A DNA stretch of 64,000 nt from an uncultured Mycoplasmatota bacterium (lineage in GTDB: Bacteria > Bacillota_I > Bacilli_A > RF39 > UBA660): positions 6,847-70,846 of the forward strand of contig CAMJMP010000001.1 in the NCBI GenBank assembly GCA_946407055.1, given 5' to 3'. The notes below the pieces were generated by a model. The model was not told where the DNA came from. It made no database searches and was given only the letters and a program-made list of their open reading frames with translations. Position 1 is the first letter of the stretch. Each line of letters begins with the position of its first letter. Positions 17,894 to 57,834 of the stretch are shown here, piece by piece. A program made the translations under genes and the position numbers.

Positions 17894-18477
17894 TGAAAAA
17901 TCAACCTTGTTATGATATAGAAGGCAATCCAATAGGATGGCTTTCTCGTTCTGTTTGTGTAGTAACTCTTATTGTTGCTAAAGTAAAAGGTAAATACTAT
18001 GTTCTTGCATCACAAAGAGGTAAAGGAACTCCAGATCCAGAATTTGTTGGATCTTGGAACTTATGTTGTGGTTATCTTGATTATAATGAAACATTAAGAC
18101 ACGCTGCAACTCGTGAATTATTTGAAGAAACAGGTGTTATTGTTAAACCTGATAATTTAGTATTTTATAAAATCAATGATGATCCTTTTGGCGATAAACG
18201 TCAAAATATAACATTTAGATATTTCTATTTGTTAAAACGTGATTATCTTCCTACTACAACTAATTCTTATAGTGAAACAGATGAAGTTGAAAAAATTGAA
18301 TGGATTCCTATTGAAAAGATTAATAACTTTAAATGGGCATTTAATCATAAGGAATTGGTTAATGAAATGCTAGATTATTATATATTTAAAAATAATCTTT
18401 CTTTATGGCAACGCATAAGTACAAAGGTAAAGAATATGAAATCCAAACTGGTAAAAAAGGTGGTCAGTTCTTTGTAG
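17893..18477 (+). CDS. Nudix hydrolase
   Basis: Nudix box 'LRHAATRELFEETGV'. Confidence 0.75.
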   Translation: MKNQPCYDIEGNPIGWLSRSVCVVTLIVAKVKGKYYVLASQRGKGTPDPEFVGSWNLCCGYLDYNETLRHAATRELFEETGVIVKPDNLVFYKINDDPFGDKRQNITFRYFYLLKRDYLPTTTNSYSETDEVEKIEWIPIEKINNFKWAFNHKELVNEMLDYYIFKNNLSLWQRISTKVKNMKSKLVKKVVSSL

Positions 18478-20226: not shown

Positions 20227-20638
20227 AAAGTATATTCATTTTGGATACTTATATTTAAAATATAGAGGATTCAAAAAGAATAAACAAAGAATGTCACGAT
20301 GTGAAGCTATGATTAAATCGTTTCTTTCACATAGTGACGTTCTGTTTAAATCTCAATATCATATAAAACTCCCACGTGGTATTAGAAAAACTAACAATGC
20401 TTATATAGATTTTATGGTTTTTAAAGATAATAAGAGAATTGCAATTGAATATAATGGTGAACAACATTATAAATTCTCTAATTATTTTCATAAAACATAT
20501 GACAAGTATTTAGAACAGCGTAAACGTGATATTGCTGTTATGGATTGGTGTAATAAACGTAATATTACGTTTTTAGAAATACCTTATACTTGGACAGATG
20601 ACGAAATTATTTCTAAAATTAAAGAAGTCATTGAATGA
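20201..20638 (+). CDS. DUF559/Vsr-like PD-(D/E)xK endonuclease-domain protein
   Basis: 'IDFMVF...IAIEYNGEQHY' matches the DUF559 core (IAIExDG..H). Confidence 0.45.
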   Translation: MMKGLKRIKKYIHFGYLYLKYRGFKKNKQRMSRCEAMIKSFLSHSDVLFKSQYHIKLPRGIRKTNNAYIDFMVFKDNKRIAIEYNGEQHYKFSNYFHKTYDKYLEQRKRDIAVMDWCNKRNITFLEIPYTWTDDEIISKIKEVIE

Positions 20639-21819
20639 ATACACTTATTACTAAAGACGCTAAAGGTAAAATTAGAGTTGCTGAATTTGAAAAAACCCTA
20701 TTGGATGATGGAAGTTATTTAATTACAAGAGTAACATATCAATATGGAGGAAAACGAACTCAGCAACCAGACATTATAATTTCTGAAGGAAAAGCTAAGA
20801 GAACTGTTAGTGAACAGGCTGAACTTAAATTTAATTCTTTAATTAAAGAAAAACTTGATAAAGGATATAAACCAATTGATAATCCTATTGATACTTATAC
20901 TTCTGAAGAATTAAATAGTATAGTAGGAGAAATTGTAACTGACTCTAACGGTTTTGCTAAACATATGTTAGCTAAACAAGCTGATAAAGTTTCCGATAGA
21001 ACAATTAATAAACCTGAATTTTGGTATGCTAGTCGTAAAATAGATGGTGTACGTTGTTCATTCTATTGGAAAGACGGAGAAATTCATACAGCATCTCGTG
21101 GAGGTGGTCATTATGATTATTCTACTTATCAATTAAGAACTAATCCAGAATTTATTGAGTTCTTTAAAAATAATCCAAATATTATACTTGATGGAGAACT
21201 TTACAAACATGGAAAATCTTTACAACAAATTTCGGGAGCTGCACGAATGGAGAAAACTGCTGATGGTTGCGACTGGCTCGAATATTACATTTATGATGTC
21301 ATGGAACCAAAACCTTTCTCCGAGCGACTTCAAACACTCAATAGAATCAGCCTCGAACTCAATTTGGGATTTGATCCAAACAGGGTCTGGTCCGATAACG
21401 ATTTACGCGTACAAATGGTTCCGCAAGAAAAGGTTTCTGGCAAAGAGAATATTATCGCGCTCCATGATAAATATGTTGCAGAAGGTTGGGAAGGATGTGT
21501 TGTTCGAGATCCTAAAGGATTATATAAGAATGGTGGACGTGGATCTGAAATGATTAAGTTCAAAATGTATCAAGATGCAGAGTTTGAAATCACAGGTATA
21601 TCTGAAGGACTTAGAGATGAAGATATGTGTTTTACATTAAAAACTGCTGATGGAATTGAATTTAAAGCTAAGCCAATGGGTTCTCGTGAACTTAAAGACC
21701 AATATCGTAAAGACCTCGATGAACTTATAGGTAAAATGGCTACTGTTAAATTCTTCTATTATAGTGATGATGGAACACCATTACAACCTGTATTAAAAGC
21801 AATTAGAGACTATGAGTAA
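20635..21819 (+). CDS. ATP-dependent DNA ligase
   Basis: Motif I 'SRKIDGVR' with the adenylated lysine, motif III 'ILDGELY', motif IV 'EGCVVRDP' and motif V 'IKFK'. Confidence 0.8.
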   Translation: MNTLITKDAKGKIRVAEFEKTLLDDGSYLITRVTYQYGGKRTQQPDIIISEGKAKRTVSEQAELKFNSLIKEKLDKGYKPIDNPIDTYTSEELNSIVGEIVTDSNGFAKHMLAKQADKVSDRTINKPEFWYASRKIDGVRCSFYWKDGEIHTASRGGGHYDYSTYQLRTNPEFIEFFKNNPNIILDGELYKHGKSLQQISGAARMEKTADGCDWLEYYIYDVMEPKPFSERLQTLNRISLELNLGFDPNRVWSDNDLRVQMVPQEKVSGKENIIALHDKYVAEGWEGCVVRDPKGLYKNGGRGSEMIKFKMYQDAEFEITGISEGLRDEDMCFTLKTADGIEFKAKPMGSRELKDQYRKDLDELIGKMATVKFFYYSDDGTPLQPVLKAIRDYE

Positions 21820-23582: not shown

Positions 23583-23774
23583 ATGTTATACGAAGTAAGT
23601 GTAGAAACAAGAGGTGAATGGGTAGAGAAAACTAGCTATTTAGTAGAAGCTGAAAGTGAAGAAGAAGCTTTGGATAAATACTATAACGGAGATGTAGATG
23701 AAACAGATAGCCACCGTGACGAGTGGGAAAATTGGACATCTGAACCTGACGTTGTAGCGTGTGAAAACGAATAA
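23583..23774 (+). CDS. Hypothetical small acidic protein
   Basis: 63-aa ORF. Confidence 0.35.
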   Translation: MLYEVSVETRGEWVEKTSYLVEAESEEEALDKYYNGDVDETDSHRDEWENWTSEPDVVACENE

Positions 23775-24697
23775 TGAAACCATTTAAAATAACTCAGTCT
23801 ATTACTAATAAAGATGATATATCTATTAAAAATTATTTTAGAGATATATCTAAAATACCTTTATTAACGAAAGAAGAAGAGTTAGAATTAGGTTATATAA
23901 TTCAAAATAACCTTAAGAAATTAAATAATTCAGAAGAATTATCTTTACAAGAAAAACGATTAACTGAAATAGAAATTAATAAAGCAGTTAATAAACTTGT
24001 AAGTGCTAATTTAAAATTTGTTATTTCTGTAGCAAAACAGTATTGTAATCAAGGTTTACCTTTCATTGATTTAGTAAATGAAGGTAATCTTGGTATGATA
24101 CAAGCAGCTAAAAAGTTCGATCCTAATAAAGGATATAAATTTATAAGTTATGCAGTATGGTGGATTAGACAATTCATAATGCAAGCGATAGCTTTAAAAA
24201 GTAGAACTATTAAAACACCTGTAAATCAATCTGCTTCTTTATCTAAACTTAATAACGCAGTTAATAAGTTCGAACAATTAAATGGAATTAAACCTTCTTA
24301 TGAAGAATTATCTAAATTAACAGGAATATCGGTTGAAAAAATAAACAAGATTTATAGTTATAATTCAAGCTGTATTTCTGTTGATACTCCATTTACTACA
24401 GAAGAAGACTCTGGTTGTTTACTTGATGTTGTTAGAAATCCAAATTGTGAAGATTCTGATAAAAATCTAATGGATTCTTCTTTAAAACAAGATATAAATA
24501 GAGTTTTAGATAAGTTATCTCCTCGCGAAAAAGTAATATTACAAATGTTTTTCGGAATAGATTGTGATGCAATGCAGTTAGATCAAATAGCTCCTAAGTT
24601 CGGAGTTACATCAGAGAGAATAAGACAGATTAAAGATAAAGCAATAGAACAGATTATTGTAAAATATAAATCTATCTTAAAAACATATATTATATGA
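23774..24697 (+). CDS. Sigma-70 family RNA polymerase sigma factor (RpoD-like, lacks region 1.1)
   Basis: Region 2 'IDLVNEGNLGMIQAAKKFDPNKGYKFISYAVWWIRQ' and region 4.2 'LDQIAPKFGVTSERIRQIKDKA'. Confidence 0.85.
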   Translation: MKPFKITQSITNKDDISIKNYFRDISKIPLLTKEEELELGYIIQNNLKKLNNSEELSLQEKRLTEIEINKAVNKLVSANLKFVISVAKQYCNQGLPFIDLVNEGNLGMIQAAKKFDPNKGYKFISYAVWWIRQFIMQAIALKSRTIKTPVNQSASLSKLNNAVNKFEQLNGIKPSYEELSKLTGISVEKINKIYSYNSSCISVDTPFTTEEDSGCLLDVVRNPNCEDSDKNLMDSSLKQDINRVLDKLSPREKVILQMFFGIDCDAMQLDQIAPKFGVTSERIRQIKDKAIEQIIVKYKSILKTYII

Positions 24698-30674: not shown

Positions 30675-30860
30675 ATGAAAATATTTTTGATTAACGTTTT
30701 ATTTCTTATATTTGGAATATATTTTAGTATTATATCATTATTTATTATATTAGGTAAATGGTTATTACAATTTATTCCAGAATCATGGGAAATTCCAGAA
30801 GACGAACCTTGGAAAATTAATCTTAAATTAGCTGATTTTGTTGAAAATGAAATTAAATAA
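30675..30860 (+). CDS. Small membrane protein
   Basis: ATG at 30675; transmembrane helix 'IFLINVLFLIFGIYFSIISLFIIL'. Confidence 0.3.
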   Translation: MKIFLINVLFLIFGIYFSIISLFIILGKWLLQFIPESWEIPEDEPWKINLKLADFVENEIK

Positions 30861-31482
30861 TTTAATAAATGATTTTGGTGATGGATCAAATGTATATTTT
30901 ACATCTGATACACACTTTGGTCATAAATCTATAATAGAATGTACCCATAGACCGTTTTCAAATACTGTTGAAATGGATACAGCAATAATTGCATTGTGGA
31001 ATGAGACAGTAGGACCTAATGATATTATATTTCATTTAGGTGACTTTTGTTGGAATGGTGCACAAAAGTGGGTAGAAATTCTTAAACAGTTAAATGGAGT
31101 AAAATATTTAATTGTCGGAAATCACGATGTAAAACGTTTGAAAGGAAATGTTTTACAATATTTTGAAGATATTAAATATCAAACGACTCTTTTAATAGAC
31201 GATTGGCATTTATATCTTAATCACTATCCTTTTCTTTGTTTTGGTGGAACATATCGTAAAGGTGCAAAAGTAGCACAAGCATTTGGTCATGTTCATTATG
31301 AAAAACTAAGTCAAGGATTAGATGTAGATAGACTTAATTATCTATTTCCAGCACAATATGATGTTGGTGTAGATAATAATTATTTCTGTCCAATTAGTTG
31401 GAAAGAATTAAAAGATAAATTCGAAAAGCAAATTAATGCTGATTGTAACATGAGGCATTATAAACCTTTAGAATTTGAATGA
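30847..31482 (+). CDS. Calcineurin-like metallophosphoesterase
   Basis: 'YFTSDTHFGH', 'HLGDF' and 'GNHD' metal-binding motifs. Confidence 0.6.
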   Translation: MKLNNLINDFGDGSNVYFTSDTHFGHKSIIECTHRPFSNTVEMDTAIIALWNETVGPNDIIFHLGDFCWNGAQKWVEILKQLNGVKYLIVGNHDVKRLKGNVLQYFEDIKYQTTLLIDDWHLYLNHYPFLCFGGTYRKGAKVAQAFGHVHYEKLSQGLDVDRLNYLFPAQYDVGVDNNYFCPISWKELKDKFEKQINADCNMRHYKPLEFE

Positions 31483-31624: not shown

Positions 31625-32221
31625 ATGATTGAATTTAGATTAAATTTTTATATTAAATCTCTTTTAGCGGGTGTATTAATTGGATTAGGAGATATTATTT
31701 ATGTAGTATCTGAAAATCATATACTCGGTGCATTTTTATTTTCACTCGGACTTTTAACAATTCTTATTAAAGAATATCCTCTTTATACAGGAAGGGTGGG
31801 GTACATAAAAAATTACGATGATTTTGTAGATTGTTCACCAATGATTCTTTTCAATTTCATTGGTATAGCTTTAGTGTGCGGTTTTGCTAATATTACTAAT
31901 CTTGATTTATCTGCGGTAAATATGATAGTTAGTAATAAGCTACATCAAGAATGGTATAGTACTCTATTCTTATCATGGGGATGTGGAGCAATGATGTATT
32001 TTGCAGTAAATGGATGGAAGAAAACAGGAAATCCAATTGCAGTTATCATGCCTATTATGTTCTTCATACTTTGTGGCTTTGAGCATTGTATTGCTGATTA
32101 TGGATATTTTATGATGTATAAGTTCAAAGAAGCTATAGATTTTGATTATCATGCTGGAATGTTTATTTTAATAGCAATTGTAGGTAATGCTTTAGGAAGT
32201 TTAACATTTAGTAAAATTTAA
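31625..32221 (+). CDS. Formate/nitrite transporter (FNT) family channel protein
   Basis: 'SLGLLTIL...LYTG', 'ILCGFEHCIADY' (compare the FocA signature 'ASGFEHSIANM') and 'IVGNALGSL' (compare 'IGNIIGG'); multiple transmembrane helices. Confidence 0.55.
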   Translation: MIEFRLNFYIKSLLAGVLIGLGDIIYVVSENHILGAFLFSLGLLTILIKEYPLYTGRVGYIKNYDDFVDCSPMILFNFIGIALVCGFANITNLDLSAVNMIVSNKLHQEWYSTLFLSWGCGAMMYFAVNGWKKTGNPIAVIMPIMFFILCGFEHCIADYGYFMMYKFKEAIDFDYHAGMFILIAIVGNALGSLTFSKI

Positions 32222-32224
32222 TAA

Positions 32225-32737
32225 ATGGATATTGCAAATAAAAACGTACTATTTTTCGACCTTGATGGAACAATAATAAATACTATATCTGGAAAGACAT
32301 TTCCAGCTGGTGTTTGGGATATGGAAATTGATCTTAGAGTATTAAGTACATTAGACAAACTTAAACCAGAATATATATTTATTGTATCAAATCAAGGAGG
32401 AATCGAAAAAGGATTTGTAAATCGAAAATCTTTTGCTGCTAAATTTGAATATGTAAAGCAAGCAATTTTTGATTATTTAGGTGATACTAATATAATCGTA
32501 GATGGTATGTATTGTACCAATGATGATAAAGCTAATGAATACAGAAAACCTAATATAGCAATGCTTGAAACATTACTTAGAAAATATAGCATTTTAAATA
32601 CTAAAGAAACAATGCTAATGGTAGGTGATGCTTCGGGTAAACCTGGGGATTTTTCAGATTCTGATAAGAAGACTGCCAAAAATTTCGGTATAGATTATCT
32701 CGATGTAGAAGATTTTATTTCTTTATTTAATAATTAA
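32225..32737 (+). CDS. HAD-IIIA family phosphatase (polynucleotide 3'-phosphatase / GmhB-like)
   Basis: 'VLFFDLDGTIINT' motif I, 'VSNQGGIEKGF' motif II (compare 'TNQSGIGRG') and 'MVGDASGK' motif III/IV. Confidence 0.55.
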   Translation: MDIANKNVLFFDLDGTIINTISGKTFPAGVWDMEIDLRVLSTLDKLKPEYIFIVSNQGGIEKGFVNRKSFAAKFEYVKQAIFDYLGDTNIIVDGMYCTNDDKANEYRKPNIAMLETLLRKYSILNTKETMLMVGDASGKPGDFSDSDKKTAKNFGIDYLDVEDFISLFNN

Positions 32738-34171: not shown

Positions 34172-35068
34172 ATGAATATTTATAAAAACGGAAATTATAC
34201 AGTTGTAATTCTTCAAGATGGAACTAAAATAAGAAAGACAAATGATGATGAATTTATTCCTTCATTTGCTGAAAATTGTGATGTAAAAATTACAGATAAG
34301 TGTTCAATTGGATGTCCTTGGTGTTATGAAGGATGTACTAAGGAAGGTAAACATGGTGATTTATTTAAGTATAAATTTATTGAAACACTACATCCTTATA
34401 CCGAAATGGCACTTAATGGAAATGATTTAAATCATCCACAACTTGAAGAGTTCCTTAATTTCCTTAAAACTAAAAAAGTATTTGCAAATATTACTGTTCA
34501 TCAAAAGCAGTTTATAAATAATTACGATTTTATTAAAAGGCTTATTGATAACAAATTAATTTACGGTATTGGTATTTCTTATAATCATTATAATCAAGAT
34601 TTTATTGATAAGATTAAAGAAATACCAAATGCTGTACTTCACACTATTAATGGTATTCTTTCTGAAGATGATATAAACAAGCTGAAAGGAAACAACCTTA
34701 AAGTTCTTGTACTTGGATATAAATATCTTCAAAGAGGAATATCATATAGTGATGATAACCAATATATTATTGATAAGAATTGGAAGTATCTTAAAGAAGA
34801 ACTTCCAAAGATTATTGCTAATAATTATTTTCAACTTATTTCATTCGATAATCTTTCTCTAAATCAACTTGATGTTAAAAGACTTCTTAGTGATAAAGAA
34901 TGGGAAGAGTTCTACATGGGTGATGATGGTAAATACACTTTTTATATAGATATGGTAAAAGGTGAGTTTTCTAAAAATTCTATTGCTTCTGAAAGATACC
35001 CTATTGGAGATAAGACTATTGATGAAATGTTTAAATTTATTACATCTAAAAATGAAGTTACAAATTAG
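34172..35068 (+). CDS. Radical SAM domain protein
   Basis: 'DKCSIGCPWCYEG' CxxxCxxC cluster near the N-terminus; 298 aa; no additional C-terminal Cys clusters, so no SPASM domain; translationally coupled to the next gene. Confidence 0.5.
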   Translation: MNIYKNGNYTVVILQDGTKIRKTNDDEFIPSFAENCDVKITDKCSIGCPWCYEGCTKEGKHGDLFKYKFIETLHPYTEMALNGNDLNHPQLEEFLNFLKTKKVFANITVHQKQFINNYDFIKRLIDNKLIYGIGISYNHYNQDFIDKIKEIPNAVLHTINGILSEDDINKLKGNNLKVLVLGYKYLQRGISYSDDNQYIIDKNWKYLKEELPKIIANNYFQLISFDNLSLNQLDVKRLLSDKEWEEFYMGDDGKYTFYIDMVKGEFSKNSIASERYPIGDKTIDEMFKFITSKNEVTN

Positions 35069-35594
35069 ACCTAGAATATTTGAAACGAATTCAAGTTCTA
35101 CACATTCTTTAACTTGTTGTGAATCTAATAAGATTGAAGATACAATTAAGCATATATTTTGGAAGAATATTGATGAATCTGAATTTGATTATGGACTCAA
35201 TTTTGATGATTATAATAACATTGTAGTTGTTGAAGGTCTTGACCTTCCTTCTGGATATGAAGAATCTAGTGTGTATATCATATTTATGAATTGGGAAGCT
35301 AAAGTACAAGTTTTACTTAATTATCTTTTTAATAATCTTCATCCAAATGATGCACTCATAGAAGATGTTAAAGATATAATTCTTTCTGAACTTAAACGTC
35401 GAGGACATGAAAATATAACAGATGTTATTATTGATGAAGAATCTATAAAAAATAAGGGAACTTGGTTTGAATGTGACAAGATCAATATGAAGAATTTTAT
35501 TGATGTTTTTAAAACATATATCACAGGAGAAAATAGTTTAATCTATTCTGATGAAGCTTATTCTTCTGATGGTATGAAAATTTTAATTTATTAA
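35052..35594 (+). CDS. Paralog 1 of the 'QIRxxLFETNSSSxHS' family
   Basis: N-terminus 'MKLQIRPRIFETNSSSTHSLT'; overlaps the radical SAM gene by 17 nt; shares C-terminal '(L/M)NYLF' with paralogs 3 and 4. Confidence 0.5.
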   Translation: MKLQIRPRIFETNSSSTHSLTCCESNKIEDTIKHIFWKNIDESEFDYGLNFDDYNNIVVVEGLDLPSGYEESSVYIIFMNWEAKVQVLLNYLFNNLHPNDALIEDVKDIILSELKRRGHENITDVIIDEESIKNKGTWFECDKINMKNFIDVFKTYITGENSLIYSDEAYSSDGMKILIY

Positions 35595-35596
35595 TT

Positions 35597-35878
35597 ATGA
35601 AAGTACAAATTAGACATGGTCTTTTTGAAACAAATTCATCTTCTGTGCACAGTTTAACTATTGTGCCAGAAAGTGAAATTGATAAATGGAGAGAAGGAAA
35701 GCTTTTCTATAGTTATGACGAAGATCGACTAATTCCTATTTCAGAAATAGAGAATTATGATCCAGATTGGATATCAAATTTTGAAGATTTTGGTGATGAA
35801 TATGAAACCTTCTTTGAAAAGTATACTTCTCCATCTGGTGATAAAATAGTAGCATTTGGTTATTACGGACACGATTAA
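35597..35878 (+). CDS. Paralog 2 of the 'QIRxxLFETNSSSxHS' family
   Basis: N-terminus 'MKVQIRHGLFETNSSSVHSLT'. Confidence 0.5.
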   Translation: MKVQIRHGLFETNSSSVHSLTIVPESEIDKWREGKLFYSYDEDRLIPISEIENYDPDWISNFEDFGDEYETFFEKYTSPSGDKIVAFGYYGHD

Positions 35879-35879
35879 T

Positions 35880-36362
35880 ATGAAAGTACAAATAAGACGA
35901 GGTCTTTTCGAGACCAATTCAAGTTCAGTACATACTCTTGTTATTGGAAATCATGGACAAAATATTTACGAGGATCTTCCCAAAGAAATAAAATTTGAAC
36001 TGGAACCAATTGATTATTGTTCTCCTGATACTGTACAAAAGAAAGCTAATTTCCTTTATAGGCAAATAATAGCTTTTTCTGATGATACAGTAGAAGACAT
36101 GAATAAAATCAAAAAGTATCTTCAAGAATTTAATATAAAGTGTATCTTTACTAATCCTCTTGAATATCCTTTCTTTAGAGATGTTATTAACGATATATAT
36201 GATATATCAGATTTTCTAATTGATATTCTTGAGAATAGTACAACACTAATGAACTATCTTTTCAGTGAAGATTCATACATTGGTTGTTACGATAACAATT
36301 ATTGGGAAGAGCAAATAGTAAAGCCAACAAATTTAATAAAGTTTAATATTGAAGACGTATGA
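35880..36362 (+). CDS. Paralog 3 of the 'QIRxxLFETNSSSxHS' family
   Basis: N-terminus 'MKVQIRRGLFETNSSSVHTLV'. Confidence 0.5.
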   Translation: MKVQIRRGLFETNSSSVHTLVIGNHGQNIYEDLPKEIKFELEPIDYCSPDTVQKKANFLYRQIIAFSDDTVEDMNKIKKYLQEFNIKCIFTNPLEYPFFRDVINDIYDISDFLIDILENSTTLMNYLFSEDSYIGCYDNNYWEEQIVKPTNLIKFNIEDV

Positions 36363-36844
36363 AACAACAAATTAGACGTAATCTCTTTGAAACTAATTCA
36401 AGTTCTGTACATAGTATTGTAATTACTAAAGAACCATTAAGTAATATTCCAAAAAGTTTATGTATAGTAAGGAAGGAATTTGGATGGGAAAATAGAATAT
36501 ATCATGATATTGAGGATAGAGTATCATATCTTTATACAGGTATACTTGAATGTTTTAAAAACGATGAACAAGAAAGATATATCAATAAACTAATTAAGTT
36601 TCTTGAAAAACTTGGAGTGGAAGTAGAAATTGATCATGATAATGATAGTGATTGGTATGGAATTGATCATGTTTATGAACTTATAGACTTTATAAAAGAT
36701 ATTTTCAATGATGAAGATTATCTTTTTAACTATCTATTTTCACCTACATCGTATATAATGACAGGAAATGATAATGAAGATCCTAATCCTTATGATGATG
36801 AAGTACCAGATAATACAATTTATCATTATATAAAAAGTAATTAA
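36359..36844 (+). CDS. Paralog 4 of the 'QIRxxLFETNSSSxHS' family
   Basis: N-terminus 'MKQQIRRNLFETNSSSVHSIV'; its start overlaps the paralog 3 stop (ATGA). Confidence 0.5.
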   Translation: MKQQIRRNLFETNSSSVHSIVITKEPLSNIPKSLCIVRKEFGWENRIYHDIEDRVSYLYTGILECFKNDEQERYINKLIKFLEKLGVEVEIDHDNDSDWYGIDHVYELIDFIKDIFNDEDYLFNYLFSPTSYIMTGNDNEDPNPYDDEVPDNTIYHYIKSN

Positions 36845-36846
36845 TT

Positions 36847-37179
36847 ATGGGAGAAAAGAAATTATATCAAGTATTTAGAATTGACATATGTTTCACATCA
36901 TATGCAATTGATTATGTATTTGTTGGAGGCGAGTCTGCAGAGGATATAAGAAATCATTTTAAAGACGTATTCTCAGACGAAAAGATTGAAGTTTGTGAAT
37001 ATACTAAAGACGAATATCCTGATAATGAAATAGGAGATATTGTATATGAACCACAATATACAGATGATGAAATTGAAGAAATTTTTAGTTCTTCACAATT
37101 TCCTCGTATTGCTCCAGTAAAGGATCTTTATACTACAACACCTTATTGTATTTTAGACTCTATTGCTTATTACGAATAA
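36847..37179 (+). CDS. Hypothetical acidic protein
   Basis: 110-aa ORF. Confidence 0.35.
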   Translation: MGEKKLYQVFRIDICFTSYAIDYVFVGGESAEDIRNHFKDVFSDEKIEVCEYTKDEYPDNEIGDIVYEPQYTDDEIEEIFSSSQFPRIAPVKDLYTTTPYCILDSIAYYE

Positions 37180-37181
37180 AT

Positions 37182-37928
37182 ATGGCATACTTTTATGAAT
37201 CTCATGAACATACTGCCAAAATGGAAGAGTTGTTCAGTAAAGAAATTAAAAATTGTATTAATAATACAAGTGTATATCGTGTTATGTCGGATTTTAATCC
37301 GACTAACATAGATATTACAGTAGAAGCTTTAACAACATCTGATGCAATTACTAAATACAAAGATTCAAAAAGACTTTGTTGTTTAAATTTTGCTTCTTTC
37401 CGACATCCTGGAGGTAGTTTTGGTTATAAAGAAGTACATCTTGCACAAGAAGAATGGATTTGTAAAGATTCATTCCTTTACAACATATTAAAGGAATTTA
37501 AAAACGAATATGTTAAAAATAGTTTTTGTAATAATTATGATTTATACGAAAACTTTGCATTATATTCTCCAGACGTTGTTTTTGTAGACACAGAATACAA
37601 TCCAATTGCTAAGTGTGATGTTCTTACTTGTGCTGCACCTAACGCTAAGGTTGCTCGTAAAAACTATAATGTAGATACTAAAGATATTGAACACGCAATG
37701 CGTCAACGTATTGATTTTGTTCTATCAACAGCAAAAGCACAAGGAGTTAAGACTTTCATTCTTGGAGCTTTTGGTTGTGGAGTATTTGAAAATGATCCTA
37801 CTTTTGTATCACAGACTTTTAAACATTTGTTAGATACCAAGGATTACGGTTTTGAAAAAATTATTTTCGCTATTCCAGGTGGTCCTAATCTTAAAGCTTT
37901 TCAAAAAACATTTTATACAAAATATTAA
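37182..37928 (+). CDS. Macrodomain-fold PARG-like (DUF2263/TIGR02452-like) ADP-ribose-processing protein
   Basis: 'HPGGSFGYKEVHLAQEE' matches the bacterial PARG signature GGG-x6-8-QEE, and the 'ILGAFGCGVFENDP' diphosphate-binding loop is present; start set at the ATG at 37182. Confidence 0.55.
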   Translation: MAYFYESHEHTAKMEELFSKEIKNCINNTSVYRVMSDFNPTNIDITVEALTTSDAITKYKDSKRLCCLNFASFRHPGGSFGYKEVHLAQEEWICKDSFLYNILKEFKNEYVKNSFCNNYDLYENFALYSPDVVFVDTEYNPIAKCDVLTCAAPNAKVARKNYNVDTKDIEHAMRQRIDFVLSTAKAQGVKTFILGAFGCGVFENDPTFVSQTFKHLLDTKDYGFEKIIFAIPGGPNLKAFQKTFYTKY

Positions 37929-37937
37929 TATTAATAT

Positions 37938-37977
37938 CCCTTCCTTGTTTGAACAAGGAAGGGTAAATATTTTAAAA
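37938..37977 (+). terminator. Rho-independent terminator
   Basis: CCCTTCCTTG-TTTGAA-CAAGGAAGGG followed by TAAATATTTT. Confidence 0.6.
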
Positions 37978-46718: not shown

Positions 46719-48092
46719 ATGGATCCAATAGTAATACAAGGAAAATATACTAAAGCAGAAATATACGCAAAAACTATAGAAGATGGTGTATATTCTCAAA
46801 TATATGATATAATCAATTGTCCAGCTTTCAAAGATAAAAAAGTAGTCCTTATGCCAGATGTTCATGTTGGAGCATCTGGTCCTTGTGGACTATGTGCTGA
46901 AATTGGTGACTGGATTTGTCCAGAACACGTTGGTGTTGATATAGGTTGTACTGTATCAATGATGGTTCTTAATAAAAAGATACCTGTTGAAAAATATGCT
47001 GAAATAGAGCATAAAATTAAAAAAGAAATCCCAATGGGTACTAATATTAGAGATATTTCTATTTTTAAAGCAAATAGAATACTTTCTAATTATTTACAAG
47101 AAAAGGATTTCTATAAATTTTTATCAACAAATTTCAATATATATCGTCAGTATTGGCCTGAAATGCTTAATGATTTGCCAACAACTGTAACAGAAGAGTG
47201 GATTTCATCACAACTTAAACGTCTTGGTATGGATGAAGGTGTGTTTTATAAATCTCTCGGAACTATAGGCGGTGGTAATCATTTCATTGAATATGATGAA
47301 TCTGACGATACTGAATATTCTTCTGCTATAACTCTTCATTTTGGTTCAAGAAACTTTGGAGTTAAGATTTGTAAGTATTGGACTGCAAAAGCAGGAAAAG
47401 GTGTTGATAAATCAAAACTAAAAGAAATTACTAAAAACTTCAAAGAAGAGTATAAGAAAACACATTCTGATATGAAGGACTTTCAATCAGCTTTATCAGA
47501 GGTTATAGAACAAGAAAAAGCTAAACTTATTCCTGGTTATTTAACAGGAGAAAATATGAAAGGCTATCTAATAGATATGTGTTTCGGACAACTTTATGCT
47601 TTATATAATCATAGAGTTGTACAAAATATCATAAGTGGAATTTTATATAAATATGATATTAAAGTAAAGGAAATTGTACATACATCGCATAATTTTATTG
47701 ATTTGGAAGATCATATTCTTAGAAAGTCTGCAATTAGTGCAAAATTCAGAGAACCTATGATTGTTCCATTTAATATGAGAGATGGTGTTGCAATATGTAT
47801 TGGAGTTGGAAACGATAATTGGTTAAATTCTTGTGCTCATGGAGCTGGACGTAAAATGTCTCGATCTAAAGCAAAAGAAACATTATCAATGGAAGAGTTT
47901 AAGAATACTATGTCAAACATATATTCTACTTCTGTCAGTGAAAATACCATTGATGAATCTCCTATGGCATATAAAGACTCTGAAGAAATACAAGAAATTA
48001 TACAAGATACTTGTGTAATTAAATGTAGATTATTTCCTAAAATTAGTATTAAATGTGATGAGGCTCCTTTAGAACCTTGGAAAAATAAGTAA
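46719..48092 (+). CDS. rtcB: RtcB-family RNA 3'-phosphate/5'-OH ligase
   Basis: 'LMPDVHVGASGPCG' metal-binding N-terminal motif and 'NSCAHGAGRKMSR' RtcB signature; 457 aa. Confidence 0.75.
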   Translation: MDPIVIQGKYTKAEIYAKTIEDGVYSQIYDIINCPAFKDKKVVLMPDVHVGASGPCGLCAEIGDWICPEHVGVDIGCTVSMMVLNKKIPVEKYAEIEHKIKKEIPMGTNIRDISIFKANRILSNYLQEKDFYKFLSTNFNIYRQYWPEMLNDLPTTVTEEWISSQLKRLGMDEGVFYKSLGTIGGGNHFIEYDESDDTEYSSAITLHFGSRNFGVKICKYWTAKAGKGVDKSKLKEITKNFKEEYKKTHSDMKDFQSALSEVIEQEKAKLIPGYLTGENMKGYLIDMCFGQLYALYNHRVVQNIISGILYKYDIKVKEIVHTSHNFIDLEDHILRKSAISAKFREPMIVPFNMRDGVAICIGVGNDNWLNSCAHGAGRKMSRSKAKETLSMEEFKNTMSNIYSTSVSENTIDESPMAYKDSEEIQEIIQDTCVIKCRLFPKISIKCDEAPLEPWKNK

Positions 48093-48096
48093 TGTT

Positions 48097-48507
48097 ATGT
48101 GTTTAACAAGATCAAACATGAATTGTGGTCCTAGATATGCAACTGAGGACATAATTTGTTATAAGATATTATATAAATTTAATAAAGGTATATATTGTTC
48201 TCCTTATATGAAGTTTCCATATAAGTTAAATGAACGTATATCATCTGATTTTAGTTTTGTATCTCTTCCTCCAGTAAAGATGTCTCCACAAAAAGAATAT
48301 AAGTTTATTAGAATTTTAACATATTTTAGACAAGTAAACAAAGGTTTACATTCGTTTAAATATTTAATAGATGCTAATAAATTTAATAATCGTTTTCTGG
48401 GAGGGACAGTTATGAAATGTATAATACCAAAAGGAAGTTGGTATTATGAAGGAAGAGGTGATGAATTAGTTTCTGATAATATAATAATAATTGAAGAAAG
48501 TAAATGA
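48097..48507 (+). CDS. Hypothetical protein
   Basis: 136-aa ORF. Confidence 0.35.
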   Translation: MCLTRSNMNCGPRYATEDIICYKILYKFNKGIYCSPYMKFPYKLNERISSDFSFVSLPPVKMSPQKEYKFIRILTYFRQVNKGLHSFKYLIDANKFNNRFLGGTVMKCIIPKGSWYYEGRGDELVSDNIIIIEESK

Positions 48508-49187
48508 AAATATTAATAACAAGTGATTTACATGGTTTTCTTCCATATATTGATCAACCAGCAGATTTATTATTAATCTGTGGTGATATTGTTCCGTTAT
48601 CTGTTCAATCAAACGGACATAAATCAAAAGTTTGGTTTAGAGATGTATTTAAAAAATGGGCAGAAGAACTTCCTGTAGACAAAGTAATATTTATTGCAGG
48701 AAATCATGATTGGTTTCCTTATTGGGATGAAGGAACAAAATTAAGAAATCTATTTCCACATGATTCTAAAGTTACATATATTCAAGATGAACTTTATGAA
48801 TATAAAGGAATTAAAATATATGGAACTCCTTGGTGTAAACAATTTTATAATTGGGCATTTAATCTTAATGAAGAAGGATTGAAAGAAAAATATTCTCAAA
48901 TTCCAGAAGGTATAGATATATTAATTACGCATGATGCTCCAAATCAAAATGAAGTTGGAATGATTCACGATGGAATATATAAAGGAGAAGATGCAAGTAA
49001 TTATATTCTTACTGATATAATTAAACAGAAAGCTCCAAAATATTGTTTCTGTGGACATATTCATTCTGGAAATCATCTTTCAAAAGAAATAGATGGAATT
49101 ACATTTGCAAATTGTTCTTATGTAAATGAACAATATGTACCTGTTAATGATTTACATATTTTATATATAGATGACAAAGACGCTTAG
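48504..49187 (+). CDS. Calcineurin-like metallophosphoesterase
   Basis: 'ILITSDLHGF', 'GDIVP', 'GNHDW' and 'GHIHSG'. Confidence 0.6.
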   Translation: MKILITSDLHGFLPYIDQPADLLLICGDIVPLSVQSNGHKSKVWFRDVFKKWAEELPVDKVIFIAGNHDWFPYWDEGTKLRNLFPHDSKVTYIQDELYEYKGIKIYGTPWCKQFYNWAFNLNEEGLKEKYSQIPEGIDILITHDAPNQNEVGMIHDGIYKGEDASNYILTDIIKQKAPKYCFCGHIHSGNHLSKEIDGITFANCSYVNEQYVPVNDLHILYIDDKDA

Positions 49188-51813: not shown

Positions 51814-51863
51814 AAGGGCGACTTGATTGGATAAACTCCAGTCAGGTCGCCCTTATTTTTTTA
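51814..51863. terminator. Terminator shared by both strands, between the convergent + and minus gene blocks
   Basis: AAGGGCGAC...GTCGCCCTT stem followed by ATTTTTTT; also the 3' end of the minus-strand gene 51861-56660. Confidence 0.6.
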
Positions 51864-54800
51864 CTCTTGTGAATTAACTTTAAGTGTATGGAATACAGGT
51901 TTAAATTGGTTGAATAAGGCATTTGATTTACCAATTGTGGTATAAATGCTTTGATCTCCGAATATTGTTTCGTGAACATTACTATATTGTTTTCCTAAAT
52001 ATTCGAAAGCAAACGGTGTCCAACTAACAGCTGGATCTCCAATAGTATCTATAAAGTTAAAATCTAAGAATGAATTTTTAACAGATTTAATTGCTATATT
52101 ATATGCTGATAATTTAAGTGCATCACCCATATCGGTTTCACTTGAATTTTTCTTTTCATCATCATAAGCTCCTGCTAATGCTGCAGCTATGATGTTTCCA
52201 ACAAGCATAAACATTATTAAATCATAACCTAATTGTTTCATATTAGAACGATATGCAGTACGTAAATTTAAATCTTCATTATACCACATATTTCTCCATC
52301 CATCTGAGATTCCATCGTTTTTCATACTACCTAATAAAGTATATATAGTAGAAACAATTCCTTCTTTCCAATTACCTTCCCAACGAACAACTTGTTCAGT
52401 TGAAGCATTTTCATCTCCTTCTTTTACAGGAGGTTCATTAAATAATATGTTGCCTTCTGCATCTTTTTGATAATAATATTTTATAGTATTACCACTTTCA
52501 TCTTTTTCAGTATAAGGAACCCAACGTCCTTCAAGTTTTACACCACCATGTGCAAGATATTGATTCTTTTTACCAGACCAGAATGTTTTAAACTGCATGA
52601 ATAATGAACCCCAAAGTGTTGATTGAATCATAGATTTCTTTTCATGTGAATAATAACCATAAAGTGTATCACCTAAAGATTTCATTGATTCTGACTCTAA
52701 GTTTGTATAAGCACGAGGTAGTTTTGTTTTCTCTGATAAATCAAATTTAAACTTACTACCATCTGGATTTAAAGCATTTTCTTTTTCAAATTGTCTTGCA
52801 GCTGCAATGTAAAGCATTTTAGCTTTTTCATATTCAGCTGGGTTAGATCTATCATCATCAAAAAATGCTTTATATCTCTTATCTAAAGCACAATCATATT
52901 CAAGTACTCCTTTACTATTAATTTTATGTGCTTCATAAGAACCTTCATTAATCATCTTAGCAACAAAGATTGTCATTCTGTTATAATAGTCTGGACGTGA
53001 TGCAAATTTAAATAAGAAGTTATTGAAATTAAATATACCGTTTTGGTCAGTCTTTATTTTATCAATATATGTATTCATATCCATATCATTGACACCATAA
53101 AGTCTATTAAACTCTTCAATTATTGTTGGTTTATCTGTATAGGCTTGTGGATTAGTTAATTCTCCATAAACTATTTTAGCTGCCTCTAACATATTAGATA
53201 ATGTAAAAGCATCAGTTCCATCTGGCTTACGGATTATTAATGATATGTCTTGCCATATACCTTGTATTGTCTGATAAATTGCTTGAACAGGAGATAAGCC
53301 AAGAACTAATTTAGATGCTGCTTGTTTGATTTTATTTAAAAATGCAACAGCAGGTCTATACTTTTCTGGAATAATTGATTCATTTTTAATCTTATTTTTA
53401 ACATAATTTTCAAGATATTCAAGGTCGTTTTTGAAACCTTCCTCTACATTTTGATTAAAACCTTGAACTGTAAGATTAATCATAGATGCTTTAATCATAG
53501 GGAACACTTCATTTACACGATTTTTCATATCATATGCAAAAGTATGTTTTAAGAAAAGTGTTTCAAGATTAAGTTCATATCTTTTACGAGCTAATATCTT
53601 ATCACGAAGTTTTCCTTCTCCGTAATCAAAATAATTAGTCATTTCAAATAAAGACTCAGAACTTTTATATTCTTGTTGTAATTTATCATCAAAAATTCCT
53701 TCAACAGATGCTTTTGCTCTTCTCCAAGCCTCTTTTGGTAACCAACCTTTAAGTCTATCTTTAAATGCTGCAAGAAGTCCATCTTTTGCAGAAATTACAG
53801 AAGTGTCTCCTTCACAAAGAGGTATTCTATAATATTTAGGATTATTCTTTTCGTATCCTCTATTTTCATTTATTATAGGAAGAACATATTGTAAAAATTC
53901 TTTTTCTTCTGGTAATAAACTATCATCTGTATCAGGATCTTTAAAATACACTTCTCCATCTTTATCAAATTCATACATATTAATGTATAAAGATGCTTGA
54001 TTACCTGTTGTATTTTCTTTAAGCCATCCAAAGTTTTTACGTTTTTTTAATTTTTCTACTAATTCGCGCATTTTAGCAGCAGGTTCTTGTATATCAGCGC
54101 GTACGTTTTGATAAGCTTCTGTTACTAATTTTGTTACAGAATTAAGTGTTTCAGATGATAAGTTACCAGGGTTATCAATCATATTACCACTAAGTCCTTC
54201 TTTATGAACCATTAATGATTGACACCAGTTTTCATGGTCATGTAATTGTTGTTTAAAGTTAATACCTTTAAGTTCAGCAATAGCAAGTAAACATTGATTG
54301 TATAATGCTACATGATCTTTAGATAATTGGTCTTGATTAGTAGTATAATTCTTTAAGATTTTACCTTTATCGGTTGTTTCAAGTTTTTTAATAATATCTT
54401 GAAGTGCTGATATTTTTTCATCTATAGAAGCATTACTTTCTATAGCAGTATCTAAAGCACTTTGACAACTCTTAAAATCTTTAAATTTAGAATATTCTTC
54501 TAACTCAGTTTTAACCATTATATCAGAAAGCATTGTTTTAGCTAATTGAACTTTAGCTGCCATTTTAATTTCTCCAGATTTGAAATTATTTCCTATAGAA
54601 ATTTTGCCTTCTGTACCACTTACTGTTTCTAATTCATTAAATGTATCAAATAGTTCTTTATTAGAACCAGCTTGAATACCTACACCTAATTGAGGATCGG
54701 CAACAAATACGTCACCTACACAAGCATTTTCTTTATCAATTAATTTATTTAACTGATTAATTGCAAGCATTGCTTCAATAAGTTCTATATTACCATATGT

Positions 54801-56660
54801 TGCTTGCATCATCATAGAGTCTGGATTTGATTTAAAATACAAATCTGATTTAAAACAACCACCTAATGTAGTTCTTCCGTTGCCAAAATTAAATTGTCGT
54901 TTTAAGTTTTGTGTAGATATTTTTACAAAATTATATTGTCTATTTCTTGCATTAAATAATGTTATAATACCTAATGCTTCAAGTGGCTTAAATGCTTCGC
55001 CTTCACAAACTTGCCAATTTTTATTAGCGTATCTATCCATTATACGAGCAAACCAGTCTTGACCAATATTATCAGTAAATTCAATACCTTCTACTGTTTC
55101 ATGTTCAATAGCAGTTTTAAGATGTCTTTTAATATTTTGTGTTAATTTATCACGAAATTTAGGTCTATCTTTTAACCACTTTTCTACTTTTTTAACAAGT
55201 TCATCTTCAGCATTAGGAAGTGAAGCATCGACTTTTATTTCTTCTGCATTTTTCTTTCTTGCTCCTTTCGGAACGAATACTAAATTACCTGCTTCATCTG
55301 GTTCAAATGCGTTAGCTTCCTCACATAATTTTTTAGCATCCTCATAACTATACGTTTTAAATTGTGAATAATTCTTGAACCATTTACCCATAGTATCTTG
55401 AACGTTTTGTAAGAAATCATCTGTTGATAATTCAGGTTGATATTGATAATCAATTACTTCATTAAGTTTTGTTTCAATATTATCGTCCAAAATTCTATTA
55501 GTAATATCTTCAAATACATTGTTTCTTAAATTAAATCCTGTAAATGTATATTTATCATCATCTTCATATTGAAAGTCAGCAATTTGTATAGGAACAATTA
55601 AATATTTTGTTTTATTAATATTTATTCCAGCTTTTGCAAGAAGACGTCCATATACAGCTGTTTGATAAGTATATGCTAATTTCTTAGCAGAATTGAAGTG
55701 ATCGTAATCGTGAATAGATGTTTTATAATCTACAATTTGAGGATTTCCTTCTTTGTCAATAACAAGTAAGTCAATGATACCCATTACTGTATCAACACCA
55801 TTTGCAACATTAGTATCTATTTTACCTGTTATTTTAAACTCAGGGTAAAAAAGACAATCATCTCCAAATTTATTAATAACAGCTTGTTCAATTTCTTTAC
55901 ACTTATTAAGTGCTTGTATAAACTGAGCATCTGTCATTAAATCATTAAATTTAATTGAACTTCCGTCTTTTCTTTTATATGTTAATGAAGATAATTTATT
56001 TCTAAATTCATTTAAAACATTAGGATCATTTTTAAGAGCGTCTTTCATGTAAACAATATTATCATCAGTAGATGATTCATGTTTACTAAAATATAATTCA
56101 AGAACAGAGTGAGTAGCATCACCAATTAATGCTTGATGTTCCCATTTGTTTTCTATTAAACCTCTTAAACGATCTTGTTGATGGGTATCTGAAACTTTAG
56201 GCATATTATTAACATCCCAACCTTCAACTTGTGAGAATAATTCTTTTTCAGCATCATTAAATTCACCTTTTGCCCAATCACCAAATCTTCCTTTAGTTCT
56301 ATCGTTTGTTCCCCAATAATTATCAGGTATAAATTCAGGGAAAAGAAGTTCATCATCTTCAGTTTTAAATCCAGATAAGAATCTATTTACACCAATATAA
56401 GGTGCTCGGAAATTATAAGAGTCTCTTTCGTCTCCAATGAATCTATTATTACGAGCATAATCCCATTCAGCTTCTAATTTCTCAGATTTTTCAGATTCTT
56501 TTTGTAATATATCTAAAACAACTGCTTGATGTGTATTAATCTGGAATACTATATCACCAAGAGATTTTCTTAAATAATTCTTTGCTAATAAAAAATCATC
56601 TAATTCAATTTCAGAATTAAATTGATGTCCGTCTAATAAATATACACAATTCATGAACAA
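51861..56660 (-). CDS. Giant protein (1599 aa) with an embedded RecB-family PD-(D/E)xK nuclease motif
   Basis: 'MGIIDLLVID...QIVDYKTS...YQTAVY' (hhhD / DYKT / QxxxY) at about aa 290-345, which is about 55625-55780; the rest is unassigned. Confidence 0.5.
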   Translation of the reverse strand: MFMNCVYLLDGHQFNSEIELDDFLLAKNYLRKSLGDIVFQINTHQAVVLDILQKESEKSEKLEAEWDYARNNRFIGDERDSYNFRAPYIGVNRFLSGFKTEDDELLFPEFIPDNYWGTNDRTKGRFGDWAKGEFNDAEKELFSQVEGWDVNNMPKVSDTHQQDRLRGLIENKWEHQALIGDATHSVLELYFSKHESSTDDNIVYMKDALKNDPNVLNEFRNKLSSLTYKRKDGSSIKFNDLMTDAQFIQALNKCKEIEQAVINKFGDDCLFYPEFKITGKIDTNVANGVDTVMGIIDLLVIDKEGNPQIVDYKTSIHDYDHFNSAKKLAYTYQTAVYGRLLAKAGININKTKYLIVPIQIADFQYEDDDKYTFTGFNLRNNVFEDITNRILDDNIETKLNEVIDYQYQPELSTDDFLQNVQDTMGKWFKNYSQFKTYSYEDAKKLCEEANAFEPDEAGNLVFVPKGARKKNAEEIKVDASLPNAEDELVKKVEKWLKDRPKFRDKLTQNIKRHLKTAIEHETVEGIEFTDNIGQDWFARIMDRYANKNWQVCEGEAFKPLEALGIITLFNARNRQYNFVKISTQNLKRQFNFGNGRTTLGGCFKSDLYFKSNPDSMMMQATYGNIELIEAMLAINQLNKLIDKENACVGDVFVADPQLGVGIQAGSNKELFDTFNELETVSGTEGKISIGNNFKSGEIKMAAKVQLAKTMLSDIMVKTELEEYSKFKDFKSCQSALDTAIESNASIDEKISALQDIIKKLETTDKGKILKNYTTNQDQLSKDHVALYNQCLLAIAELKGINFKQQLHDHENWCQSLMVHKEGLSGNMIDNPGNLSSETLNSVTKLVTEAYQNVRADIQEPAAKMRELVEKLKKRKNFGWLKENTTGNQASLYINMYEFDKDGEVYFKDPDTDDSLLPEEKEFLQYVLPIINENRGYEKNNPKYYRIPLCEGDTSVISAKDGLLAAFKDRLKGWLPKEAWRRAKASVEGIFDDKLQQEYKSSESLFEMTNYFDYGEGKLRDKILARKRYELNLETLFLKHTFAYDMKNRVNEVFPMIKASMINLTVQGFNQNVEEGFKNDLEYLENYVKNKIKNESIIPEKYRPAVAFLNKIKQAASKLVLGLSPVQAIYQTIQGIWQDISLIIRKPDGTDAFTLSNMLEAAKIVYGELTNPQAYTDKPTIIEEFNRLYGVNDMDMNTYIDKIKTDQNGIFNFNNFLFKFASRPDYYNRMTIFVAKMINEGSYEAHKINSKGVLEYDCALDKRYKAFFDDDRSNPAEYEKAKMLYIAAARQFEKENALNPDGSKFKFDLSEKTKLPRAYTNLESESMKSLGDTLYGYYSHEKKSMIQSTLWGSLFMQFKTFWSGKKNQYLAHGGVKLEGRWVPYTEKDESGNTIKYYYQKDAEGNILFNEPPVKEGDENASTEQVVRWEGNWKEGIVSTIYTLLGSMKNDGISDGWRNMWYNEDLNLRTAYRSNMKQLGYDLIMFMLVGNIIAAALAGAYDDEKKNSSETDMGDALKLSAYNIAIKSVKNSFLDFNFIDTIGDPAVSWTPFAFEYLGKQYSNVHETIFGDQSIYTTIGKSNALFNQFKPVFHTLKVNSQE

Positions 56661-57709: not shown

Positions 57710-57834
57710 TTCTTAAAAAGGTCTTAACACGTTCTTAATTCCTCCATTAATGCTTGTTCATATAATGAAGCGTAATAATCTAAATCTGCTACTGTTTTAC
57801 CATCTATTTCCTTAGTAGGCATTTTACTCAAATA

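Follow-up and report, generated by a model that had tools for sequence, protein, structure and literature searches.

Poly(ADP-ribose) glycohydrolases (PARGs) of the bacterial type occur widely, and their biological role has been described as enigmatic (PMC11833690). The founding member is the enzyme from Thermomonospora curvata (TcPARG; PDB 3SIG/3SIH), while DRB0099 from Deinococcus radiodurans (DrPARG; PDB 5ZDA-5ZDG) is grouped with SCO0909 from Streptomyces coelicolor. Members of the family bind ADP-ribose and use the glutamates of a QEE triad to hydrolyze the bond at C1'' of the distal ribose (PMC8120803, PMC6445106), and the published signature, which includes the two catalytic glutamates, is GGG-X6-8-QEE. 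The linkages cut by PARG-type enzymes are O-glycosidic, between two riboses, or lie at phosphate ends (PMC11833690, PMC6445106). According to a 2025 study, only PARG-type hydrolases reverse the 2'-OH ADP-ribosylation of RNA made by RhsP2, bacterial PARGs remove the phosphate-end ADP-ribose made by Tpt1 and protect Escherichia coli from the toxin, and the operon that encodes DrPARG also specifies a ligase and a Pnkp-like enzyme (PMC11833690). Here, we describe a PARG-family gene at positions 37,182 to 37,928 of a 64,000-nucleotide stretch of contig CAMJMP010000001.1 (assembly GCA_946407055.1), hereafter the window, which is probably phage DNA. The product is a candidate eraser of ADP-ribose from nucleic acids, chiefly RNA. 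The gene and the elements on which the analysis relies are as follows.

37182-37928, + strand: PARG-family coding sequence, 248 amino acids, stop codon included in the coordinates (PF10021 / TIGR02452).
37404-37454, + strand: catalytic loop, residues 75-91, HPGGSFGYKEVHLAQEE, located by alignment to TcPARG and DrPARG.
37761-37799, + strand: diphosphate-binding loop, residues 194-206, LGAFGCGVFENDP, located by alignment to the TcPARG segment LGAWGCGVFGNDP.
37875-37889, + strand: equivalent of the "ribose cap", P232-G-G-P-N236, located by alignments to PARGs in the PDB.
37938-37973, + strand: intrinsic-terminator-like hairpin with a T-rich tail, recognized by its stem and folding energy.

Membership of the product in the bacterial-type PARG family (PF10021 / TIGR02452 / DUF2263) is secure because curated profiles, matches to solved structures, fold, and conservation all agree. 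The protein exceeds the curated thresholds of two profiles: PF10021, the Pfam model for the microbial-type PARG catalytic domain, gave 72.2 bits (cutoff 23.5, E=7.8e-20), and TIGR02452 of NCBIfam gave 166.2 bits (cutoff 50, E=1e-48), the latter over model positions 25-262 of 266. PF10021 was the sole family returned by the Pfam search of the protein, with no match to NADAR (PF08719), and a search against PHROGs v4 returned no family and only noise at E>0.06. Sequence matches in the PDB were the T. curvata enzyme (3SIG, E=9e-23) and the D. radiodurans enzyme (5ZDA-G, E=1e-21), and the motifs LNFAS, PGG, QEE, APN, and GAxGCGVFxNDP all align with the solved PARGs. An AlphaFold2 (AF2) model built from 53 homologues has a mean predicted local distance difference test score (pLDDT) of 93.2 and a predicted template modeling score (pTM) of 0.91, and consists of a macrodomain core extended by N-terminal helices. 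The 13 best PDB matches to this model in Foldseek were bacterial PARGs throughout (3SIG/3SIH/5ZDA-G), with template modeling (TM) scores of 0.75-0.81 and E~1e-18 over ~250 columns; the scores to 5ZDB/3SIG were 0.77-0.81. The fold is the same over the full length as that of TcPARG (TM 0.80, ~27% identity), and the DrPARG entries are the best structural matches (TM 0.77-0.80, 28% identity), whereas the next-best macrodomain structures reach TM≤0.56. The original prediction, which was made from the sequence, had identified a bacterial-type PARG/DUF2263 macrodomain and had named the absence of a predicted PARG fold as the outcome that would speak against it. The profiles, the solved homologues, and the confident model, which superposes on PARGs, bear the identification out.

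The conservation pattern fits a working enzyme. Residues Gln89, Glu90, Glu91, Gly77, and Gly78 are invariant among the 53 homologues, as are Gly195, Ala196, Gly198, Cys199, Gly200, and Phe202 of the diphosphate loop, and the QEE triad is kept in 26/26 of the phage lineages sampled (defined at 70% PARG identity). In a comparison with a 96%-identical copy on contig L166, 22 codon changes were synonymous and 10 were non-synonymous, which gives a crude ratio of non-synonymous to synonymous change (pN/pS) of 0.11, and the gene is under purifying selection. Judged from sequence and model, the gene is predicted to encode a catalytically competent ADP-ribosyl glycohydrolase. As in the solved homologues, two loops, Gly77-Gly78 and the diphosphate loop Gly195-Phe202, would bind ADP-ribose, and the QEE glutamates Glu90/Glu91 would promote hydrolysis at C1'' of the distal ribose to release free ADP-ribose.

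Within this already known family, the protein is a somewhat divergent addition with a minor variant of the catalytic loop. The loop carries the Gly77-Gly78 contact to ADP-ribose and the catalytic Gln89-Glu90-Glu91, both predicted by alignment. Both peptides quoted in the original prediction and its coordinates were found as given there, and of the motif it had proposed, GGG-x8-QEE, the triad and the first two glycines stand. The actual form is GGS-x9-QEE, with Gly77, Gly78, and Ser79 followed by nine residues and then the triad. The segment aligns to HPGGGFLSGAH-AQEE of TcPARG and to DrPARG with two gaps, which amount to a 2-residue insertion; compared with TcPARG, two residues are added to the spacer and a serine takes the place of the third glycine. 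The insertion is limited to the window protein and to the homologues P0001, P0003, P0004, P0006, P0008, and P0009, a subclade with 50-96% identity in which every retrievable genomic context is phage-like, and the 9-residue spacer corresponds to phage lineages 0-2 of the 26. The third glycine of the signature is variable in the 53-sequence alignment and is a glycine in only 4/26 phage lineages. The published literal signature therefore appears to be looser than stated. The diphosphate loop is intact, reading GAFGCGVF (Gly195-Phe202) where TcPARG has GAWGCGVF.

A further difference from TcPARG lies in the ribose cap. In TcPARG, an ionic lock between Arg268 and Asp261 caps the 2'-OH of the adenosine ribose and defines an obligate exo subtype (PMC6445106). 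In the window protein, the position of TcPARG Arg268 and DrPARG Thr267 is taken by Asn236, a residue that hardly varies in the family alignment, and four residues that include the counterpart of TcPARG Asp261 are deleted. The corresponding segments read PGAPR in TcPARG and PQHPK in 5ZDF, which is the T267K mutant of DrPARG. By sequence alignment, the protein lacks the TcPARG-like Arg268-Asp261 cap. The exo-only lock is predicted to be absent because Arg268 is replaced by Asn236 and the Asp261 segment is deleted, and, by analogy with DrPARG, which also has a small uncharged residue at this position, the enzyme is probably not locked in an exo-only mode.

The cap bears on one alternative, namely that the enzyme acts on proteins by removing poly(ADP-ribose) (PAR) or oligo chains laid down by a host ADP-ribosyltransferase (ART)- or PARP-like defence, or by an ART of the phage itself in a writer and eraser pair of the T4 Alt/Mod-like kind. 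Hydrolysis of PAR is the founding activity of the family and has been demonstrated for TcPARG and DrPARG (PMC8120803, PMC6445106), Asn236 takes the place of the ribose-cap arginine much like the threonine of the endo-capable DrPARG, ARTs and even PARP-like enzymes are found in jumbo phages (PMC7824862), and most of the phage relatives lie on contigs of 100-550 kb. However, DrPARG leaves the protein-proximal mono-ADP-ribose in place (PMC6445106), a Pfam scan of the window ORFs (open reading frames) of ≥60 amino acids detected no ART, PARP, Sir2, or Tpt1 (25/27 families listed in one scan; 64 kb only), and no ART recurs as a neighbour across the 26 phage lineages (10 annotated neighbour clusters). 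We regard a role on proteins as rather unlikely.

The genomic neighbourhoods of the relatives point in another direction, to RNA. We surveyed the ORFs within 8 kb of PARG genes at 85 phage loci (the window and 84 others) that make up the 26 lineages, clustered the neighbours, and annotated 10 neighbour clusters by Pfam. RNA ligase (PF09414) is found in 4/26 lineages and is adjacent to the PARG gene, at a median distance of 27 bp. A calcineurin-like phosphoesterase (Metallophos) is present in 8/26 lineages. A nucleotidyltransferase of the CCA-adding/poly(A) polymerase type with an HD domain and a DUF2828+DUF7788 protein each occur in 5/26; RlaP, an RNA-ligase-associated nucleotidyltransferase, and NAD-dependent DNA ligase each occur in 4/26; and a Pol-beta nucleotidyltransferase occurs in 3/26. 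A second, weaker metallophosphoesterase family is found in 4/26 lineages, and the window gene at 30838-31482 belongs to it. On contig L001, where the PARG is 51% identical to that of the window, a Tpt1/KptA gene lies 7 kb away. For the cellular relatives, a Tpt1/KptA gene adjoins at ~96 bp in 3 loci and an RtcB gene lies close by in 4; Metallophos genes are found in 3+4 loci, a NADAR gene adjoins (16 bp) in 29 loci, and a Nudix regulator of the NrtR type is nearby in 26. Taken together, the phage and cellular neighbourhoods of the PARG relatives suggest a link to RNA repair. It should be noted that bacterial loci L115-L161, from Paenibacillus and others (e.g., L115:5316-5807), carry a two-eraser cassette of PARG and NADAR together with an ADP-ribose-responsive regulator.

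The window itself encodes an RNA/DNA end-repair kit that is scattered over the replication arm.

20635-21819: ATP-dependent DNA/RNA ligase, a member of the end-repair kit.
30838-31482, + strand: metallophosphoesterase (weak Metallophos_2; PDB 1XM7, E=7e-13).
32225-32737, + strand: HAD phosphatase of the polynucleotide kinase (PNK) 3'-phosphatase type, for end healing (PF08645, E=5e-23).
46719-48092, + strand: RtcB RNA ligase (PF01139, E=9e-55; phrog_1075).
48504-49187, + strand: second metallophosphoesterase, one gene downstream of RtcB (Metallophos; GD.H and GNHD motifs).

In its association with nucleic-acid repair genes, the gene resembles DrPARG: a ligase gene and a gene for a Pnkp-like enzyme flank DRB0099 (PMC11833690), and RtcB, the PNK 3'-phosphatase, and the metallophosphoesterases are encoded in the same arm as the phage gene. 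On contig L167, the PARG gene (60% identical) lies directly 3' of the metallophosphoesterase gene L167:7698-8375, with a 3-nt gap, and this latter gene is a 59%-identical orthologue of window gene 30838-31482. Because the two orthologues abut in L167, ~5.7 kb appears to have been inserted in the window lineage or lost in L167; within it lie a radical-SAM (S-adenosylmethionine) module, the PNK phosphatase gene, a transporter-like ORF, and a crAss001_48-like gene. We infer a functional tie of the PNK 3'-phosphatase to the PARG from the RNA-repair theme only, and the tie of the 30838-31482 metallophosphoesterase is likewise putative.

We favor a role in the removal of ADP-ribose from nucleic acids, chiefly RNA, within a repair and counter-defence kit, because the recurrent RNA-repair neighbours match the published biochemistry of PARGs, and we place the probability of this role at roughly 50%. 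The enzyme would take ADP-ribose off nucleic acids, primarily off the 2'-OH or the 5'/3'-phosphate ends of RNA, and its partners in the kit would be RtcB, the PNK 3'-phosphatase, and the metallophosphoesterases. The effect would be to undo the damage caused by a host ART toxin or to clear ADP-ribose adducts of the Tpt1/KptA type. A narrower version holds that the enzyme is dedicated to counter-defence and belongs to a class so far undescribed in phages, in that it erases host-made ADP-ribose from the 2'-OH of RNA (RhsP2-type) or from phosphate ends and so reverses a translation-blocking ART immunity alongside RNA healing and sealing. This version is possible but tentative, and a variant in which the enzyme cuts the 1''-2' ribose-ribose bond of the cyclic ADP-ribose (cADPR) signals of Thoeris is less likely. 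DrPARG and SCO0909 are cellular enzymes for which activity on PAR, 2'-OH RNA ADP-ribosylation, and phosphate-end ADP-ribose has been demonstrated, whereas the gene in the window is phage-borne and its activities are predicted.

Several observations weigh against a role in RNA de-ADP-ribosylation. The RNA-repair genes of the window lie 4.5-11 kb from the PARG gene and do not adjoin it; flanking the gene are the radical-SAM module, which is unrelated, and ORFs without known function. RNA-repair genes are frequent in large phages, and adjacency to PARG is clear for the RNA ligase alone; the neighbour counts stand without a genome-wide background control. The cellular loci are taxonomically skewed, with Paenibacillus dominating the NADAR and NrtR counts. 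The 2-residue insertion and the serine in place of the third glycine could give the catalytic loop a different geometry. In the literature searched, we found no paper that characterizes a phage PARG. To our knowledge, no RNA-targeting ART has been described for the presumed Bacteroidota host.

The original prediction had suggested that the enzyme might counter DarT-like or other ART defences. Countering some ART is plausible. DarT in particular is unlikely to be the target because DarT-made, base-linked adducts are reversed by DarG-type (TARG1-like) macrodomains or by NADARs. Under this reading, ADP-ribose would be removed from thymidine or guanosine bases of phage single-stranded DNA, for which there is precedent in the orphan erasers that phages carry against DarTG, namely AdfN NADARs and DarG2-like macrodomains (PMC11825919, PMC11481870, PMC13309987), and the position of the gene in the phage DNA replication arm would suit it. 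However, the known DarT erasers are base-specific enzymes of the TARG1/DarG and NADAR classes, the former having a TARG1/ALC1-type macrodomain that usually comes with a DarT-binding domain or a neighbouring darT gene. The AF2 model matches MacroD/TARG-type structures with TM scores of only 0.45-0.56, and PF10021 is the sole Pfam family of the protein. In a published RNA panel, guanosine base adducts needed NADARs and PARGs took the O-glycosidic and phosphate linkages (PMC11833690). PADLOC gave no match for the protein, DarG-like or otherwise. When ART, sirtuin, Tpt1, and DarT families were sought by Pfam in the window ORFs, none was found, nor was a NADAR in the other window ORFs scanned. What the gene shares with AdfN and the DarG2-like proteins is the concept of a phage eraser of host ART defence; those enzymes have another fold (NADAR) or belong to another macrodomain class, their action on base-linked DNA adducts is proven, and the window protein belongs to neither group. 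We consider DarT-modified DNA a very improbable substrate.

Soluble ADP-ribose derivatives have also been considered as substrates. Examples are the 2'cADPR/3'cADPR signals of Thoeris, O-acetyl-ADP-ribose, and ADP-ribose-1''-phosphate, the cleavage of which would shut off immune signals or, along with the Nudix and nicotinamidase-like enzymes of the phage, supply NAD+ salvage. The O-glycosidic 1''-2' bond that joins two riboses within 2'cADPR is the same bond that PARG cuts in PAR, and exactly this bond is cut by an unrelated phage glycosidase, RyDEP (PMC13232231), a RyR-domain protein that has a different fold, a catalytic His/Asp, and cyclic ADPR as its substrate. The cellular relatives lie beside NADARs and NrtR-type ADP-ribose-responsive regulators, and the window encodes a nicotinamidase-like and NUDIX pair at 17294-18477. 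Against this, no PARG-type enzyme has been reported to be active on cyclic ADPR isomers, and, judging from published structures, the adenosine 2'-OH would be far from the distal C1'' in the canonical PARG binding mode, so that a glycocyclic substrate should fit poorly. The Nudix/nicotinamidase pair is 19 kb away, and no operon of the NARP1/NARP2 type adjoins the PARG gene. On balance, soluble substrates are improbable. The pair itself consists of an isochorismatase/nicotinamidase-like gene (17294-17893, + strand) that abuts a NUDIX hydrolase gene with a clear Nudix box (17893-18477, + strand), and a role in NAD+/ADP-ribose turnover is possible.

The boundaries of the gene are well defined. The ORF opens with ATG at 37182 and closes with TAA at 37926-37928 (248 codons). 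The ATG is 3 nt past the stop codon of the preceding ORF, and an alternative TTG 36 nt 5' of it would overlap the upstream gene. The ATG is supported as the start because the metagenomic homologue P0001, which is also 248 amino acids long (96% identity, 100% coverage), matches over the full length. The gene is the last of a rightward, tightly packed array. Ten nucleotides beyond its stop codon begins a stem-loop (37938-37963) with a perfect 11-bp stem, 6 G-C pairs, and a 4-nt loop, followed by the T-rich TAAATATTTT. The folding energy of the RNA hairpin is -18.5 kcal/mol (z=-4.4), and 0/200 shuffled sequences were as stable. By the usual criteria, this hairpin is a strong terminator that closes the co-directional array 34172-37928, and the stem, the T-rich tail, and the z score agree with the earlier proposal of a strong terminator after the gene.

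PARG genes are common in cells and rare in phages. The family is matched at E≤1e-3 by 6,505 cluster representatives (50% identity), and members occur in thousands of bacteria; the nearest cellular relatives, at ≤45% identity, are from gut Lachnospiraceae and allies. In a tblastn search of 50,697 deposited phage records, 20 contained a relative (30-47% identity): 15/15 records of Lak megaphages (42-47% identity), gp114 of Bacillus phage G twice, two huge-phage contigs, and one faecal contig. In IMG/VR, a relative was found on 360 viral contigs, mostly of 100-550 kb, none with more than 46% identity. Giant eukaryotic viruses also encode "microbial-type PARG" proteins (TM 0.65-0.76 among the viral structure models of BFVD). 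The Lak megaphage, phage G, huge-phage, and giant-virus proteins belong to the same family, and the window protein falls in the separate subclade with the 9-residue spacer. Surveys of viral NAD+/ADP-ribose systems (PMC9503650) and of jumbo phages (PMC7824862) pooled Macro domains and did not single out the bacterial-type PARG. An apparent literature link between PARG and zeta crAss-like phages proved spurious, since the match was to the author name "Pargin".

This rarity, the lack of a PHROG family, and the variable position of the gene among relatives would fit a passenger, that is, a recent, decaying, or neutral moron without a role in infection. The pN/pS of 0.11 and the full set of intact catalytic residues argue otherwise, as do the retention of the loop insertion throughout a phage-borne subclade with 50-96% identity and the tight packing of the gene within a transcription unit that ends in a terminator of its own. 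A passenger is the least probable of the readings considered here.

Sequence features of the window indicate that it is probably part of a gut phage that is AT-rich and a distant relative of the crAss-like phages. Its G+C content is 28-29%, its genes point rightward up to ~51.8 kb and leftward beyond, and the GC skew flips at this strand switch. It encodes replication and nucleotide enzymes (a superfamily-2 helicase, DnaB, Toprim primase, NrdD, NrdG, ATP-dependent ligase, ThyX, and dUTPase) and contains the phage-specific domains crAss001_48 and N4 gp49/Sf6 gp66. DnaB has its nearest matches on human faecal phage contigs (45-47% identity) and is more distantly similar to those of crAss-like phages (27-29%). 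No virion gene was recognized and no tRNA gene was found within the 64-kb window. The phage itself lies outside the collection of 50,697 records, because a megablast search with 15 kb around the PARG gene found no match there. Contig L166 and the 58-kb contig of P0257 represent close relatives of it. The description of the gene as phage-encoded in the original prediction is thus well supported, if indirectly.

A module of co-directional, tightly packed genes precedes the PARG gene.

34172-37179, + strand: the module as a whole, next to the PARG gene.
34172-35068, + strand: radical-SAM-like protein with a CxxxCxxC motif (phrog_16999, "Fe-S oxidoreductase").
~35065-36844, + strand: four "FETNSSS" paralogues.
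36847-37179, + strand: ORF of 110 amino acids.

The radical-SAM protein is 63-66% identical to a counterpart in all Lak megaphage records, where the module is ~4 kb from the PARG gene and on the opposite strand. The module is present without PARG in the Microcystis phages Ma-LMM01/MaMV and on contigs L168 and L170, where it forms a triad of a FETNSSS protein, a ~120-amino acid protein, and a ~298-amino acid radical-SAM protein. Conversely, the phage of contig L167 has the PARG orthologue (60% identical) and no module, and only the Lak megaphages have both. A functional unit of the module with PARG was ruled out as a general link, since each occurs without the other. The FETNSSS paralogues share an invariant N-terminal R..FETNSSS.HS as well as DH and TGNDN motifs, and two of the four are degenerate. 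The family comprises at least 258 cluster representatives, 0 of which have a Pfam hit. An AF2 model of one paralogue (pLDDT 84.6), considered as a possible ART or phosphoesterase, had no fold match in the PDB, and the invariant motif sits in its low-confidence N-terminus. The motif may be the target site of the radical-SAM protein.

Several other genes of the window deserve mention. A complete sigma-70-type factor (regions 1.2, 2, 3, and 4) is encoded in the replication arm (23774-24697, + strand). A 198-amino acid ORF (31625-32221, + strand) matches most of the formate/nitrite transporter model PF01226 (E=2.6e-16), which is an unusual channel-like gene for a phage. Two homing endonucleases, one GIY-YIG with NUMOD1 and one LAGLIDADG, are located at 3983-4849 (+ strand) and 61000-61704 (- strand), and the LAGLIDADG gene is flanked by large leftward ORFs. 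The region 51861-63997 (- strand) holds very large ORFs of 1599, 352, 1002, and 651 amino acids that are nearly devoid of family matches; the only matches are a PD-(D/E)XK domain in the 1599-amino acid protein and 24% identity of the 1002-amino acid protein to a 117-kb faecal phage.

Reversal of 2'-OH ADP-ribosylation of RNA by PARGs, and the accompanying protection from toxin, were shown only in 2025. The present analysis finds that gut phages carry a PARG that is intact and under purifying selection, and that PARG genes of phages generally lie among RNA-repair genes. This raises the hypothesis that RNA ADP-ribosylation is a battleground between phage and host on which PARG is the eraser on the phage side. 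If this does not hold, the gene would be a routine accessory enzyme. If it does, PARG would be a third class of hydrolase in phage counter-defence, after NADAR and DarG-like macrodomains, and the gut Bacteroidota or Bacillota would harbor RNA-targeting ART defences that are still unknown.

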